Positions 33,001-42,000 of a stretch of 64,000 nt of DNA are shown in pieces. The DNA comes from an uncultured Elusimicrobia bacterium (GTDB lineage Bacteria > Elusimicrobiota > Elusimicrobia > 2-01-FULL-59-12). The position numbers are program-made. The stretch covers positions 1,152,001 through 1,216,000 of the forward strand of contig OY969767.1 of the NCBI GenBank assembly GCA_963702895.1, read 5' to 3'. Every line of letters starts with the position of its first letter. Positions within the stretch are counted from its first letter, which is position 1.

Positions 33001-36000
33001 GTGCCGCAGAAGCCTTCATCTTCGAGGCACGATAAAGGTGTCCGGCAGCCGGCGCAAGCCCACGGCAAGAAGAATCTTAAGAGATGAGAAGCAAGAAACG
33101 AGAGCTGAGAGACAGCTCTTCGACCTCTCATGTCGGTTGCTTCTTTTCGCGTTTGGCGTTTGCTTGTGCTGTGCGAACGGAGGCTACTAGGATGGCGGTT
33201 AATTCGCTGCACTCTCGTCGTAGCGCTTCCAAACCGGGTTCTTGGACGAGAGCAGACTCCATAATCAATGCGAGCCAATAGCCGGACTCCCGCATTTCTT
33301 TGAGCGCGATATGCATTTTGTGAATAAAATCTGCGCGTGACTCTGCAGAGCGTGCTTCTTGGGCATTTGCACCACACGATGTCGCGGAGCGCGAGAGTTG
33401 CTCAGCGATTGACTTTAGATCGGAGATTTGTCGCAAGGCAGAAGTGAGGCGTAAGATGGCGACACCAAAGTCTAGGCAACGTTCATGAAATCTCTTCTTG
33501 TTAGTTGGCGATACGTTCATCATGGACTTCTATCCCTTAGATGCAAATCCACGCACTTTATTCACTTTATCGTCGGAGAGACTCGAATCCTGGTGAAGAG
33601 CGATAGCAGAGAAACAAGAGTAGAGAAATGAGAAGCGAGAGCAAAGAAGCGAAAGCAGAGAAGCGAGAGCAGAGAAGCGAGAGCTGAGAAGCGAGAGCTG
33701 AGAAACGAGAGCTGAGAGGCGAGAGCAGAGAAACGAGAGCTGAGAAACGAGAGCAGAGAAGCGAGAGCAAAGAAAGCAGAGTGGACACACGTCATTGTCT
33801 CTTAACTCGCTTGTCGAGCGAGCCGCTGTCGTCTCTCGTTTCTCTGCTCTCGTTTCTCGCTTCTCGAGCGAGCCGCTGTCGTCTCTCGTTTCTCTGCTCT
33901 CGTTTCTCGCTTGTCGAGCGAGCCGCTGTCGTCTCTCGTTTCTCTGCTCTCGTTTCTCGCTTCTCGTATTCTTAGAACTGGATGGTCAGCAGGGTGTTGA
34001 CTTCGTAGCCGTAGGTGTTGGCGTCGGAACTGACTTTGTTGGCCGTGTAGAAATAGTTGCCGCCGAAGCTCAAACGGATGTTGGAGGTCATTTCATAATC
34101 ATTCGACGTCGAAATCTTGTAGGTGTCCGTGTTGCTGTTGAGCTCATCGATCTTGGACCTTCGCATATCGACAGAAAAGTTTTCCGTCGTTCGAATGCGG
34201 TTGGAGAAGACCACCAGGTCCGCGAAGGGCAATTTGAGCCCGGCGGGCAAGTAGAGATCCGCGTAGGCCTGCAGGGCGGCGGTTTTTGTCCGGAGGTCGG
34301 CTGTTAAACGGCCGGAAGCATCCTCTGTTTCGCGCGAGGTCTGATCATACTTGGGTGAGAGGCGCCATTTGCCGACGTTAAAGCCCAATTGCATTCCGAG
34401 GACCGAACCATGTGTTTGGGATGTGGTCACGCTGTTGATACGGTCGTAGGAGCTGTCCGAGGTCCTTGTGTAGGTGGTATAGAGATCGAGTTTGCGAAGG
34501 ATGGTAAAGCGCCAGTCACCGCCATTGGTCGACGCCTTTTGCAAAGAGATCCCTGCGGTGTCCACCTTCTTGTGTTGCGTCTTCAAGTTCAACTGGCTGT
34601 TGGACATCCAGCGGCTCGCGAGGAAGAGATGTTCGGTCTGGGCGAATCCCATCAGCAAGTCTGGGAAGACCTGGGTGATGATTTTCGTTGGGGTGCCCGT
34701 GGTCTCCTGGCGTTGCCGCGTGTCCGTGATGTTCGACGTGAGCGACATCGTCCGGATCGTGCGTCCTGGTCCTGTCCATTGCGTGGCCCAGTCAAAGGGA
34801 CTCAGGCGCTGTGTGGAGCGAACGGTTTCCCGGATGGTCAGATTGGTTCTTGTCCCTGAACCCAGGCTGTTTCGGACACTGATCGAATTCAAGCTGTTGT
34901 AGCCGCCTTCAACCTCCTTCCAGCTGTCACCGTTTTCTACAAGGTAAGTTGTGACGACATTCATAGACTGCAGTGGACGCAGGCGCCGTGTTAAATCACG
35001 CCAGGCGAGATCCCATCCCGCCTCGGCGGTCGAGGTGCGGTCCACTGTCTTTCGGTCAGCGGCAAGGAGGTTGGCGGCCAGTGGCAGTCCAAAGGTCTCA
35101 CGGTTGGTGATGGTGTAGCGCATGCGGGGAGAGAACCACCGGCGGAAGCTAAAGACACCATCCAAGCCCAGTGTTTGCGTCTTGAGTTTGTCATATTCCA
35201 CCGTTTGCGTCGAAACATTGATGCCGGTCGATGTTGAGAAGAGCACATCTTTTGCCTCGTGTGTGATGGACCGTGAGAAGCTGGGGTTGATCGAGAAGCC
35301 GCTGGCAGGCTGGAAGCTCAGTTTAGCGTTGATGTCCTGCGTGTTATTGCGCGTGTTCGAAACGGAGAAGGGGTCGCTTGCATTGGTGAGGGCTCCATCG
35401 CCGAAATTGAGTCGCAACCGGGAATACCGATAGCCCATGGAGATATTTCGCGGCAAGAACCGGCTGCGTGCCGGGACATCGTAATCCATGGTGATGCCGT
35501 AACGATCGGCCTTGTCCGTGCGAAAAATCTGGGAGGAGACAGTTTTGTTGGCGTCGTAGAAAAGGCCAAATTTGGGGAGTCGCGGGATTTGGAGTGTGCC
35601 CGATCCTGAAAAACTCTTGTCCCGTACGTCTCCTTCTTGGAGGTAGGACACAAGGGTTGAATTCACCGTGTTGATGGCCGGCGTGATGGTATGGCGTTGG
35701 CTGCCTGTAAAGGCCATCGGAAACCAACTCAGGCGAGTGAGGTTCAAGGTCGCGGTCTGCTCATGGCGGTCCTGGTTGGTGATGGCGCTCGTGAATGTTT
35801 CGAAGTTCCGGTCGATATTTCTGGCAGATCCGGTCAGCGAGCCCCATCCGAAAAGATCCAAGCTGGCCTTAAAGGAGGACGCATAGCCTACGCGGCTGAT
35901 GACATCAGCCCCATAGACCTCGTTGAACCACAATTCACCTGATCTTGTCGCGGCCGTGGTGGTATCGACGCCAAACTTGAGCTGTGCAATGGACGACAGG

Positions 36001-39000: not shown

Positions 39001-42000
39001 TGGACGGTGAATCCCGGAGGAGGAGGGACCGCGGGTGCCAGCCTTCCAAGGGGCGCGGTGGACAAGGCGATTTCTGATGGCAACGGCATGAACAGAGGCT
39101 GGCCGGCTTCAATGAGCCGGCGCATCTCGTTCCAGCGCTCCCGCTCATTGCGAAGTTCCTGGTGGGGCTGAAGATCGAGAGAGGCCGCTTCAATGGCCTG
39201 GGTGCTAAGAGCGTCACTCAGGTCAGGAAGAAGGTCTTCGATCGGTTTTTTAAGGAGGCGGATAGACTGCAGCACATAATCGGGAAGATCAGCCTCACCA
39301 TAGAGCGTGTAAAACGCGCTACATACGAGCCCGCAGAAAAAGACAAAAATAGCGAATTTACGGCGCATATTTCGAACTATTGTTGTCCGAATTAGGCTAA
39401 ACTGCAAGACTTTTTAAGCAAAAACGAAAATTGGCACAATCTGTAACGTTTCTAAAAATCATGCCGCAAACACGTATAATTCCTGCCATGAAGATCCTTT
39501 CACGCTATATCCTGAAGGAATTTCTCGGCAATGTGTTCTTGGGGTTGCTGATCTTCACGTTCGTTCTGCTCCTGGACCACCTCTTTGAGCTGATCGACCT
39601 TCTGCTGGGGAAAGGGGTTGGACTGGGGCTCACCCTCAAACTTCTGACCCTCCTTCTCCCCTCCACCCTTTCCCTGACCCTGCCCATGTCCATTCTCCTG
39701 GCGTCTCTCTTGACGTATGGGCGACTGTCCGAACACAATGAAATCACAGCCGCACGCGCGAGCGGCCTTAAGGCGTGGAGCTATGTCAAAATGCCGTTGC
39801 TCATCGCCCTCTTGGCGGCGGCCTTTCTTGTCCCTTTTAACACGCGTTGGGCGCCGCGTGCGCATGCCTCCTTCCGCAGTATTTACGTCCAGCTCCTCAA
39901 ACGCAACCCCTTGGTGCGGATCGAAGAGCGGACGTTTGTTGAAATTGGCGAGTATCATCTCTACATCGAGCATAGGGAAAAAAAGAAGGGCCTCATGCGG
40001 GGTGTGACCATTTACAAACTTCCCACCAGCGGCGCAGGGCTGCGTATTTTCGCCGAACGCGGCAAGGCCGCTTATGAAGAGGGCAAGGGGCTCACGCTGC
40101 TCTTGTCCCAGGGGCGAATCGAGAAAGTGGATGCGGCCGCCCCGGAACGTTGGATGAACACAGAATTTAAGGAGTATCAGTTTTTTATTCCACTGGCGAG
40201 TGCTCAAGCGAGCTCCGAGAGGTCCATCGAAGAAATGGACAATCGCGAACTCCGTAAAGAAATTACCGTGCTCAAAAGCAAAGGGCTTCCTTACCCCATC
40301 CTGGCTTGTCAGATCCAACTTCGTTGGGCGCTCGCGATGACACCGCTTCTCTTTGCGGCCCTCGGCATACCGCTGGCCATCCGCATGCAGCGCGGTGGAA
40401 GGTCGATTGGTTTCGGCATGAGCCTCATCATCATGGTGCTCTACTACATCTTGCTCATGGGCGGCACCGCCTTGGGGCAGCGTGGTTCATGGCCTCCCTG
40501 GATCGCGGTCTGGATGGGCAATAGCGCGCTTCTTGCTTCGGCATCGTTTCTTTATTGGAGGATGACCCGGCGGTGAAAATTGTCGATCGTTACCTGATCC
40601 GATCGTTCCTTGTCCCTTTTGGTGTTTGCGTCCTGATCTTTGGTGTCTTGGTCACGCTGGGAAGGTTTTTCGACAAAATGGGCATTTTCGTACGCTTTCA
40701 CGCCCACTTCGAAGACATCGTCAAAGTCTTGCTGCTGGGACTCCCCTTTTGGCTGAATCTCGTTCTGCCGATTGCCACGATGCTGGCGCTTCTTTTTTCG
40801 CTGGGCCAGCTCCAGCAACGCGGCGAGTTTAACGCCTTTCGTGGAGCGGGGATCCCCTCCTGGCGGCTTTACCTCCCCTTTGTGGCGACCGGGTTTTCCC
40901 TGGCCCTTTTTTCCCTTGTGGGCGGGCTCACGTTTCTCCCCAAGCTGAACTTCGAATCGCGAAAGATCTACCGTGTGGAGATCAAAAAGCGCGATGTGCT
41001 CGAATATCAGAAAGACAATATTGTCGCCGCGGGCCGCCATCGCCGGCGCTTCACGATCGGCTGGCTGGACGTGGAGAAGGGTCTCATCAAAGATCTGATT
41101 GTCGATCGGTTCGACGATCAGTTCGCCTGGCTGGAGACGCACTCCGCCAAAACCGCCCTCTATCAAAACGGAAGCTGGCTTTTAAAAGACGGTGTGTGGC
41201 GCTCAAAAGATCCCCTCGCTTCCATGGGCATTCGGGAGGTTCCGTTTACAGAGAAAACGGTGGACATCCCAGAGAAGCCGTCGGATTTTGTCATGGAAGA
41301 CAAAGAAACGGATGATATGACAGGCCAGGAGCTGGTCGAACGCGCGAAGCGCTTAAAGCGAAGGGGCGCGCCCGTTTATAAAGAAAAAGTCGCGCTGCAC
41401 TTGAGGCTCGCTCTCCCCTTCGCCAATGTCGTGGTCATCCTGCTCGCCATACCCTTTGCCCTCCGAAGCGGTATGCAAAGCCGGACACAAAACTTTGCTT
41501 ATGCGCTCGCGCTCGCCTTTCTCTATTGGGGCTCGATCTCGATTTTTCAATCCATGGGTGAACAGGGGAGGCTGCCGGCCTGGGTGGCCGCGTGGATGTC
41601 TAATTTTCTCTTTACGGGACTAGCCGCGTGGAAGCTTTTCCGACTTACCTGATAATGACCGCCTTGGAGGATTTCGACTCGCCATCGGCCCGAATGAGAT
41701 AGAGATAGACCCCTGGCGCGACGAACTCGCCGTTGCCATTCTTTAAGTCCCACACATATTCATAGACCCACTTCTCATTGAAAGAACGTTCGGTGTTGAG
41801 CGAAATATCGCTGAGAGGTACTTTTCTGACCAAATCGCCGCTGAGGGTATAAATGTTGATCTGATAGTCATTGGCGGGCCGGCCCAAATGGAACTGGATG
41901 GTGGCGTGCCCCTCGCCCATGGGATGAGCATAACCCTTGCCTGCCGGGTTGGGATAACTGATGGCCTTCTTGATGATCTGCGATGCGGTGACGCTTAAAT

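Follow-up and report, generated by a model that had tools for sequence, protein, structure and literature searches.

A short SprA-like protein in Elusimicrobiota as the probable outer-membrane pore of a type 9-like export route with no detectable Gld motor

The window analysed here is a stretch of 64,000 nucleotides from the genome of an uncultured Elusimicrobia bacterium (G000; one contig, 2,724,539 bp, 98% complete, which was also searched as a whole), and the features in and around its large minus-strand pore gene are these:

32382..33377, minus strand: comF/gntX-like protein with a double zinc ribbon (PF18912), the conserved downstream neighbour of the pore gene
33530..33790, minus strand: 86-aa ORF of no family, perhaps not a gene, in the space that separates the pore and comF-like genes
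33972..39368, minus strand: SprA/Sov-family outer-membrane translocon homologue, short form, 1,798 aa (TIGR04189, profiles, AF2 and Foldseek)
39431..40576, plus strand: lptF/lptG-family LPS export permease, divergent from the pore gene (PF03739, E 4.7e-80)
40555..41652, plus strand: second lptF/lptG-family permease (PF03739, E 5.4e-74)
41645..43402, minus strand: M6-family metalloprotease with a CTD-type C-terminal tail, a candidate cargo protein (TIGR03296, E 5.9e-41)

The longest open frame of the pore gene (33972..39407, minus strand) has a TTG start and would encode 1,811 aa, while the ATG at 39368 gives a 1,798-aa protein with a signal-like N-terminus and a C-terminus that ends in TIQF. 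The genome-wide survey's note had taken this protein for a distant homologue of SprA/Sov, and the figures behind this were reproduced: the SprA model TIGR04189 matches in four stretches with E 2.5e-50 and 170.9 bits (under the curated cut-off of 200), SprA_N (PF14349) matches with E 1.9e-4 and 20.9 bits (under the curated cut-off of 27), and phmmer against the PDB gives no matches, and hence no PDB SprA. Relatives that carry a name are Elusimicrobiota "hypothetical proteins". With profiles built from 41 Elusimicrobiota relatives, the N-terminal half finds F. johnsoniae SprA in the PDB in four stretches at E 1.8e-39 and the C-terminal half finds it at E 4.3e-21; a full-length profile of the family is colinear with all seven long SprA proteins compared. 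AF2 models of the two halves (pLDDT 78.4 and 84.4) point the same way, as for each half the four best PDB chains in Foldseek are all SprA (E 6.4e-44 and 2.3e-41), with the first other matches at E 2.4e-7 and 1.5e-6, and VIA-align superposes 992 residues of the model on SprA 769-2366 (Z 17.9, rmsd 8.6). That the pore protein is truly homologous to SprA/Sov, as the note had proposed, is borne out by sequence profiles and modelled fold; it is a shortened form of that family.

Of 21 loci drawn from 13 families, 17 have an lptF/lptG pair upstream of the pore gene, 15 of them directly so; in the window the gap is about 60 bases, and this back-to-back arrangement with lptFG is new. The comF-like gene (TIGR00201 comF, E 2.4e-22, under cut-off) is directly downstream in 15 of the 21 loci, whereas the 86-aa ORF matches nothing in Pfam or NCBIfam and forms no conserved cluster across the loci compared. 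The metalloprotease, whose homologues adjoin lptFG in 7/21 loci, has both an HEFGH and the tail motif; it matches NF052323, a model for T9SS-dependent M6-like proteins, at E 1.1e-22 (under cut-off), and its tail is matched by that of the PorU model (E 3.5e-4) and by TIGR04183 (E 0.03, under cut-off). The conserved neighbours of the pore gene are thus lptFG and the comF-like gene and not carriers, which counts against the reading that we prefer below.

Of the 151 Elusimicrobiota genomes sampled, 143 have the gene, in one copy each (E<=1e-5); the phylum has, to our knowledge, been thought to be without type 9 secretion. In genus g26, PorV_fam genes occur in 12/12 genomes with a strong SprA-like match and are missing from all seven reduced genomes without one, a joint disappearance of the two kinds of gene that is likewise new. 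Three genomes (G042, G013 and G141) have PorV_fam matches and no SprA-like match, which counts against the preferred reading; one other (G085) has a weak SprA-like match only (E 2.3e-14). In 46 of the 151 genomes the pore is kept and no TIGR04183 match is found (in genus g4, 0/30 genomes have one); this too counts against the preferred reading, though the tails have probably diverged, an explanation for which five such genomes were checked.

The genome studied here has nine genes over the cut-off of NF033709 (PorV_fam) and three weaker ones. Seven of the nine are directly adjacent to a gene with a CTD tail, one is three genes away and one is an orphan, which bears out the earlier count of eight barrels placed no more than three genes from cargo. 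The further suggestion, that every large cargo has a PorV shuttle of its own, fits only some 8-11 cargo genes; 13 CTD genes form a 47-kb array that contains no carrier gene. When one PorV-like barrel was modelled together with the tail of the cargo encoded beside it, the complex prediction scored 0.92, and the best of three controls 0.00. Among solved complexes 116 of 157 reach that level, and among mismatched pairs 2 of 215; the runs share at least 99% of contacts, with a partner pLDDT of at least 87. As a PorV-CTD complex has already been solved (8gl6), this prediction indicates likeness to that complex and not binding.

The number of cargo proteins depends on how they are sought: TIGR04183 gives 19 places over its cut-off of 24 at E<=1, our own tail motif gives 25 ORFs, and the PorU model matches 29 places by its C-terminal tail only (E<=10). 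Overall the genome encodes some 25 proteins that carry a T9SS-type domain at the C-terminus, a few of them type-B-like; the 29 counted earlier falls inside the range of 19-29, but that exact figure was not reproduced. Their extreme C-terminal residues follow the classic YPNP...G.Y.Y...K pattern. The 2,974-aa giant does end in a CTD-type tail, as had been claimed, and is encoded directly beside a PorV-like gene. A 13,690-aa ORF shares 58 bases with a 1,099-aa ORF that has such a tail at its end, and the two may be one gene; most giant proteins of this genome have another C-terminal tail and no CTD. In four ORFs the tail is preceded by the motif PNGDGxND, which we take to be a type B hallmark, and a related PNNDGEND lies mid-protein in the 2,974-aa ORF. 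Three of the four, together with one ORF with a degenerate motif, are near weak, partly PorP-like barrels (two of them at a distance of 7-9 genes), and the fourth is near a strong PorV_fam gene.

The note had also reported that GldK, GldL, GldM and GldN were undetectable, although at that time no control genome had scored over the cut-off. Each of the four models now finds its target in 5/5 Flavobacteriaceae genomes, and the Elusimicrobiota genomes searched still give none over cut-off: in the genome studied here there is no match to GldM or GldL at E<=10 or to GldK or GldN at E<=0.001, and over cut-off GldM and GldL are each found in 0/151 sampled genomes and GldK and GldN each in 0/35, HMM searches that strongly diverged GldL/M-like proteins could escape. 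PorU and PorZ, which had not been sought before, are matched in all seven Elusimicrobiota genomes searched through C-terminal tails only, and at full length in three of five controls.

Calling the system 'motor-less', as was done before, goes too far, since Tol/ExbB-type stators remain and only the Gld motor is missing from these searches. The genome studied here has four MotA/ExbB-family stators, among them a flagellar-type MotA with no MotB beside it and another MotA that is paired with MotB next to a FliG-TPR protein. The smallest pore-bearing genomes (G066, G046, G106, G074, G011 and G008) have one stator of this family each and no TonB-dependent receptor; the stator, of Tol/ExbB-ExbD-TonB type, lies in a cluster ftsK-lolA-pgsA-pgpA-exbB-exbD-TonB_2 with no hub-like genes beside it. 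Genomes of 1.4-1.6 Mb keep one pore and one cargo-carrier pair, and in four of five small genomes examined the PorV-like gene is immediately preceded by a large gene with FlgD_ig/CHU_C-type domains, while the locus in the fifth ends at a contig edge. The minimal set is smaller than the one proposed earlier, and this retention of one pore, one pair and a single Tol/ExbB-type stator is new.

It is conceivable, though we consider it unlikely, that a dedicated motor and hub are present but escape the Gld models, through divergence or because they belong to a different family, in which case this would be a complete T9SS. The pore is itself so diverged that phmmer misses it and curated cut-offs fail, and its partners could be equally so; the four stators described above would fit as well. 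Two 1,030-aa TPR proteins match the PorW/SprE model weakly, with 65 and 92.5 bits against a cut-off of 250; one follows a PorV-cargo pair and the other precedes exbB-exbD-exbD-tonB. FGE-sulfatase-type proteins match part of the GldK model in 14/35 Elusimicrobiota genomes. Against this, the genome studied here has no GldK-model match of any kind, GldL, GldM and GldN are over cut-off in none of the genomes sampled, the smallest genomes have only their single stator, and no conserved gldKLMN-like cluster was found near pore or carriers in the loci read.

Somewhat less probable still is that the barrel serves outer-membrane biogenesis, for instance coupled to LPS export, with CTD proteins leaving otherwise, such as through PorV-like barrels alone. 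A single-copy, near-universal gene next to lptFG and away from the carriers would fit, as would unconvincing LptD barrel matches (PF19838 none at E<=1; PF04453 one below threshold, E 0.088). However, an 814-aa protein encoded elsewhere has an LptD/LptA-type N-terminal domain (LptD_N E 3.2e-6; NF002997 E 4.2e-9) and lptC-lptA-lptB are present with kds genes, so that LptD is probably present; the pore is lost together with PorV-like barrels in g26, and its characterised relatives are protein translocons only. At the single Flavobacteriaceae sprA locus read there is no lptFG, so the synteny would be particular to a lineage, perhaps as gene order passed down by descent.

We therefore favour, with a probability of roughly 60%, the reading that the pore is the outer-membrane translocon of a type 9-like export route that goes back to the ancestor of the Elusimicrobiota and occurs in nearly all of them. 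Cargo would cross the inner membrane by Sec, marked by a C-terminal beta-sandwich domain (mostly type-A-like, in a few cases type-B-like with PNGDGxND), and would then pass the giant barrel to be taken up by PorV/PorQ-family carriers, mostly encoded beside their own cargo, or, for type-B-like cargo, by the weakly PorP-like barrels. Because no PorU/PorZ attachment complex was found, cargo would most likely be retained by its carrier at the surface, in the manner of type B substrates in Bacteroidota. Neither the GldLM motor nor the GldKN hub would have a part in the Elusimicrobiota system. A passage of PMC10994853 describes substrate trapped on the translocon of F. johnsoniae when the motor is disrupted, so that, going by that passage, a system without Gld proteins would need another release step. 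It is tempting to speculate that release is unpowered or is driven by another envelope motor, the sole one retained in the smallest genomes being the TolQ/ExbB-TolR/ExbD-TonB_2 (TolA-like) system.

Among known systems the closest is the T9SS outer-membrane translocon, SprA in F. johnsoniae (PDB 6h3i, 6h3j, 8gl6, 8gl8) and Sov in Porphyromonas gingivalis, to which the pore is homologous by profile: the two are colinear over profile positions of about 65-1160, are alike in giant-barrel fold in both halves, and co-occur with PorV-family barrels and CTD-tagged proteins. The Elusimicrobiota pore is some 600 residues shorter (1,700-1,900 versus 2,300-2,500 aa), a gap made up of several insertions and not of one lost domain. 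It also differs in belonging to a non-FCB phylum and scoring under the curated family cut-offs, in the company it keeps (GldKLMN, PorU and PorZ were not found in the pore-bearing genomes searched), and in its conserved place beside lptFG, as opposed to sprA beside ruvA in one Tenacibaculum locus. With type B systems the genome studied here shares PNGDGxND ahead of the tail, in four of its ORFs, if the motif is indeed the hallmark that we presume. As described in PMC12635249 and PMC9143113, the type B substrate/PorP-SprF pairs of Bacteroidota likewise have the carrier barrel encoded beside the cargo, and in both groups the cargo would be expected to sit on its carrier as a surface anchor. Unlike PorP/SprF pairs, most pairs of this genome combine a PorV/PorQ-family barrel with a type-A-like tail, the models TIGR04131 (21.7 of 35 bits) and TIGR03519 (31.1 of 90.55 bits) both staying under cut-off here, and, unlike Bacteroidota type B carriers, those of Elusimicrobiota would have no GldK to link to.

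The pore gene of the window opens at the ATG at 39368, within a minus-strand open reading frame at 33972-39407, and encodes a protein of 1,798 residues (33972-39368) with a hydrophobic, signal-like segment at its N-terminus and the C-terminal ending TIQF. Across 41 relatives that last F never varies and the Q before it hardly does; an aromatic C-terminus is a signature of outer-membrane barrels. The protein belongs to the SprA superfamily, yet scores under the curated equivalog cut-off: the SprA model TIGR04189 matches it in four stretches with E 2.5e-50 and 170.9 bits, below the cut-off of 200, and the N-terminal model PF14349 (SprA_N) reaches E 1.9e-4 and 20.9 bits, below its cut-off of 27, although by E-value both matches are significant. 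A phmmer search with the single pore sequence found no match among PDB sequences. All of these figures reproduce those of the genome-wide survey's note, which had listed the phmmer result as a caveat. That caveat is now lifted, since profiles built from both ends of the protein reach a solved SprA. Relatives of the gene in 40 further genomes belonging to the phylum were aligned separately over the N-terminal 1,200 residues (alignment A2) and the C-terminal 1,199 (A1), with 41 rows each, and against F. johnsoniae SprA (6h3i_A) the A2 profile gave E 1.8e-39, in four stretches, and the A1 profile E 4.3e-21.

At 1,798 residues the protein lies below the ~2,300-2,500 residues that would mark a SprA by length. 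Its full-length relatives measure 1,692-1,909 residues in 49 loci, plus one shorter reading frame of 1,597, and the long SprA proteins 2,328-2,502. A full-length Elusimicrobiota profile matched seven of seven long SprA proteins colinearly, with profile positions ~65-310, 338-428, 499-676 and 804-1160 corresponding to SprA residues ~82-348, 441-550, 666-866 and 1163-1574; as the order of the matched blocks is kept, the ~600 missing residues are distributed over several insertions. Among the long and intermediate SprA clusters the nearest to this profile is that of a 2,328-residue protein (E 2.4e-89), and the only named members of these clusters are from Draconibacterium and Muribaculaceae.

AlphaFold (AF2) models, made in two overlapping halves covering residues 1-1200 and 600-1798 (mean pLDDT 78.4 and 84.4, respectively), predict a giant beta-barrel with inserted cap domains. 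When these were compared with the PDB by Foldseek, the top four chains were all SprA for either half, with E 6.4e-44 to 3.4e-31 for the N-terminal half (next match 2.4e-7) and 2.3e-41 to 1.9e-33 for the C-terminal half (next match 1.5e-6). In VIA-align the C-terminal half superposes on SprA residues 769-2366 with a Z of 17.9 and an rmsd of 8.6 over 992 aligned residues, as against a Z of ~14 and at most 445 aligned residues for ordinary barrels. The C-terminal third drew no match in any sequence search but is matched by fold, and is thus SprA-like by fold. Taken as a whole, the homology of the pore protein to SprA is firm.

The pore is close to universal in its phylum. Homologues of the window's protein (query P0001) at E<=1e-5 occur in 143 of 151 sampled Elusimicrobiota genomes, including 132 of the 138 of high quality, and in 61 of 63 genera, nearly always as a single full-length frame that is 1,700-1,900 residues long and shares 30-40% identity with the query. 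A public protein collection yielded 198 proteins at E<=1e-20 among 8,000 scored; 24 of the 120 listed homologues carry an NCBI name, which is 'hypothetical protein' for 23 and 'carbohydrate binding domain-containing protein' for one, and the sources of these 24 are labelled Elusimicrobia, Elusimicrobiota, Endomicrobiales or Elusimicrobiaceae in 22 cases and simply 'bacterium' in two. The assignment to the phylum is founded on this distribution as well.

The surroundings of the gene are also conserved. In a synteny sample of 21 pore loci, drawn from 13 families, the pore gene has an lptF-lptG pair upstream in 17, directly so in 15 and nearly always divergently; in the window ~60 bases separate it from lptF. 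A comF-like gene follows immediately downstream in 15 of the 21 loci, and an M6 protease with a tail of the type 9 secretion (T9SS) C-terminal domain (CTD) type lies beyond lptFG in seven. The sprA locus of one Tenacibaculum (genome G151) has ruvA upstream and, downstream, VanZ and two proteins with TonB C-terminal domains; these two, of 240 and 251 residues, stand just downstream of sprA (locus L162:1068-2650). A scan of window positions 33300-39800 for promoters and terminators was uninformative, with four promoter-like sites against 3.3 expected and five terminator-like sites against 6.5. Two other groups of genes were noted in the window:

26455-28151, within a few kb of the pore gene: type IV toxin-antitoxin pair made up of an AbiEi-like antitoxin and an AbiEii nucleotidyltransferase toxin
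49134-61594, minus strand: long polysaccharide/LPS gene run with a sugar transferase, a GT4, a GT9 heptosyltransferase-like protein, a flippase, a WecG-type protein and a 953-residue GT4 fused to an O-antigen-ligase-like part

That the pore might be the missing LptD was considered. Of the LptD barrel models, PF19838 has no match in this genome at E<=1 and PF04453 a single sub-threshold one (E 0.088); as a simple reading this idea was rejected in view of an 814-residue protein with an LptD/LptA-type N-terminal domain at C1:1259534-1261978 (C1 being the contig, OY969767.1) and an lptCAB-kds cluster, both encoded elsewhere in the genome.

The candidate carriers are barrels of the PorV/PorQ family (NF033709). 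The genome, a single contig of 2,724,539 bases with a completeness of 98%, has nine that exceed the cut-off, and three others score lower, with 65, 55 and 44 bits. None reaches the PorV or the PorQ equivalog cut-off, the best scores being 77 bits of 250 and 117 of 220. Of the nine, seven are immediate neighbours of a gene with a CTD tail, one lies three genes from such a gene and one is an orphan; cargo precedes carrier in five pairs (one of them with a below-cut-off barrel) and carrier precedes cargo in three. The orphan, at C1:1495100-1496074, was considered as a universal carrier and set aside: a clear orthologue was found in the sister genome only (63% identity), with paralogues at ~30-37% elsewhere. 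The type A CTD model TIGR04183 is over its cut-off at 19 places in the genome, and the tails stand at the extreme C-terminus with the pattern YPNP...I.IY...G..V...WD..N..G..VASGVY.Y....K.GK..VIK. When one PorV-like barrel was modelled in complex with a 100-residue tail from the cargo encoded next to it, the score was 0.92, which is to be read as likeness and not as binding because a PorV-CTD complex has already been solved; the best of three controls scored 0.00. As a benchmark, such a score is attained in 116 of 157 solved complexes and in 2 of 215 mismatched pairs, and the runs agreed in at least 99% of contacts, with a partner pLDDT of at least 87.

A second class of cargo seems to be present as well. 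Four reading frames of the genome carry a PNGDGxND motif ahead of the tail, a motif that we take to be the hallmark of the type B CTD, and a fifth, of 2,974 residues, has a related PNNDGEND in mid-protein; on one of the PNGDGxND frames the model TIGR04131 gave 21.7 bits, under its cut-off of 35. The three weak barrels have nearby three of the four, together with one frame in which the motif is degenerate (two of these at a distance of seven to nine genes), and the fourth lies near a strong PorV-family gene. Two of the three weak barrels have faint PorP/SprF matches (TIGR03519, 31.1 bits against a cut-off of 90.55). From these motifs and matches, set beside the type A tails, the genome seems to hold both type A and type-B-like cargo.

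The earlier proposal of a dedicated PorV shuttle for each large cargo stands only in part. Carriers are indeed paired with neighbouring cargo, but a 47-kb tandem array at C1:2185276-2232109 (read as loci L075-L077) holds 13 paralogous CTD genes of 626-1,653 residues, 12 of them on one strand, with almost identical tails and frequently overlapping start and stop codons, and no carrier gene was found within it.

The genome also encodes very large proteins. At C1:28349-72663 a 13,690-residue frame overlaps by 58 bases a 1,099-residue frame with a CTD-type tail, and the two may be a single frameshifted gene or two genes; downstream follow a 582-residue PorV-like barrel fused to TPRs and a 1,609-residue frame with a TPR-like end, for which no family match was found. 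At least 15 giant frames (1,500-12,900 residues) share a different C-terminal ending, made of basic residues, small residues and a final alanine (for example ...RRLAAAA, ...RVRSAA and ...ALGRAA), with a hydrophobic stretch ahead of it in several. Examples, all outside the window, are:

C1 93226-100263: giant frame with final-alanine tail
C1 222921-228947: giant frame with final-alanine tail
C1 750022-788685: giant frame with final-alanine tail
C1 1417356-1427876: giant frame with final-alanine tail
C1 2386879-2406897: giant frame with final-alanine tail

When the C-terminal 150 residues of 12 such giants were searched, no NCBIfam family exceeded its cut-off, and two weak sub-cut-off matches were to unrelated families. 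As they have no T9SS-type tail, their shared ending may be a second, unfamiliar sorting signal.

Across the phylum, PorV-family genes occur in 144 of 151 genomes and TIGR04183 in 105. Among the 19 reduced genomes of one genus (g26; 0.6-1.4 Mb), 12 have a strong SprA-like match and all 12 have PorV-family genes; the other seven have no SprA-like match or a remnant (E ~1e-6), and PorV-family genes are absent from all seven. As these losses may be few events among close kin, they make a pattern and not a statistic. Counter to the link stand three genomes (G042, G013 and G141) that have PorV-family genes and no SprA-like match, and a fourth (G085) with only a weak one. The genomic association of pore, carriers and cargo is good but circumstantial evidence that the three are functionally linked.

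The genus g4, which at first sight speaks against the link, keeps the pore in 30 of 30 genomes and has TIGR04183 in none. The principal PorV-like locus was examined in five small genomes (one of g9, three of g4 and one of g3). Four of these loci have, directly upstream of the barrel, a gene for 1,171-1,634 residues that include FlgD_ig/CHU_C-type domains, the fifth locus reaching a contig edge; small genomes thus appear to keep one pore and one cargo-carrier pair. TIGR04183 was accordingly rejected as a census of cargo, as it misses the tails of small gut-type genomes despite these large PorV-adjacent genes, and its absence there is probably a limit of the model, not biology. In four small genomes (G066, G046, G106 and G074; loci L078-L081) a Tad/Flp-type pilus set comes after the single cargo/PorV-like pair, in the same orientation, with a TadE-like protein, RcpC/CpaB, a short secretin and a T2SSE-type ATPase, the domains being annotated in G066 only and the gene sizes conserved in all four.

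The claim that GldK, GldL, GldM and GldN are not detectable has been borne out, now with models that are positive, each in 5/5, in Flavobacteriaceae control genomes, which were reached through a Tenacibaculum SprA and in which the four gld genes stand side by side. GldM and GldL gave no match at E<=10 in this genome and none over the cut-off in 151 Elusimicrobiota (GldM, one chance-level match at E 0.0046; GldL, five weak ones, the best at 1.8e-5). GldK had no match in this genome and none over the cut-off in 35 Elusimicrobiota, 14 of which have partial matches of FGE-sulfatase type, and GldN had none in this genome and none over the cut-off in the 35. PorU and PorZ, a gap left by the survey's note, have now been searched for: in this genome and six other Elusimicrobiota (7/7) the matches are to the C-terminal tails only (PorU model 950-1095, PorZ model ~640-757), as against full-length matches in three of five controls. 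That the Gld energy chain is absent is a well-controlled result.

Where energy for export might come from is a separate question. This genome has four stators of the MotA/ExbB family:

exbB-exbD-TonB_2, TolA-like
exbB-exbD-exbD-tonB, preceded by a 1,026-residue TPR protein
C1:2298032-2302165 (locus L012:5032-9165): motA-motB beside a FliG-TPR protein
C1:1836578-1837387: flagellar-type motA without motB

The Gld motor is missing, therefore, but an envelope motor is not. The FliG-TPR protein has 649 residues, in which TPRs are joined to the middle and C-terminal domains of FliG; the fliG model TIGR00207 matches it at E 7.2e-41, under its cut-off. Of 39 genomes surveyed, the small pore-keeping ones (G066, G046, G106, G074, G011 and G008) have exactly one such stator each and no TonB-dependent receptor at E<=1e-5; in the two that are annotated (G066 and G011) it lies in a cluster ftsK-lolA-pgsA-pgpA-exbB-exbD-TonB_2. 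The sole candidate motor common to all is Tol-like. It is not dedicated to the pore, since genome G089 lacks the pore and still has this stator. Two TPR proteins of ~1,030 residues, one following a PorV-cargo pair and its paralogue heading the exbBD-tonB cluster, match the PorW/SprE model NF052312 weakly, in the TPR part only, with scores of 65 and 92.5 bits where the cut-off is 250; as possible PorW/SprE-like parts they are a lead, no more.

The boldest reading, which is tentative and to which we would give a probability of roughly three in ten, is that an SprA-like pore, a PorV-like barrel and a beta-sandwich tag would constitute an old export core that is self-sufficient without GldKLMN. 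In Elusimicrobiota this module would belong to the core functions of the envelope, share its regulation with LPS export (lptFG) and be either unpowered or driven by the cell's single Tol/ExbB-type motor, and the motor and hub of Bacteroidota would be a later, gliding-linked addition. A phylum with pore, carriers and tags but without the Gld chain offers a natural experiment on the requirements of the pore, and a far smaller system for reconstitution. It would also assign a function to an 1,800-residue 'hypothetical protein' of nearly every Elusimicrobiota genome, and yields a prediction of which proteins a phylum with few cultivated members displays on its surface.

As for the systems already described, T9SS is regarded as restricted to the Bacteroidota or the FCB group: PMC4793230 reports it from 60 of 97 Bacteroidetes genomes but from no clade besides, and PMC11205867 assigns it to the FCB superphylum. 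Current models, as given in PMC12635249 and PMC10994853, tie the release of cargo from SprA to the GldLM-GldKN energy chain. A search of the literature other than subscription journals found no paper on such a system in Elusimicrobiota, and the papers that name T9SS together with Elusimicrobia or Elusimicrobiota do so in unrelated places. Unlike the T9SS of Bacteroidota, the Elusimicrobiota set has no detectable GldLM motor, GldKN hub or PorU/PorZ attachment complex, and because these were searched for and not found it is not T9SS as defined in Bacteroidota. Like the T9SS core, however, it has a translocon, a carrier and a C-terminal tag, and like the type B branch, as described in PMC12635249, it encodes carriers beside their cargo; that pore, carriers and tags make up a real new variant of T9SS is well supported.
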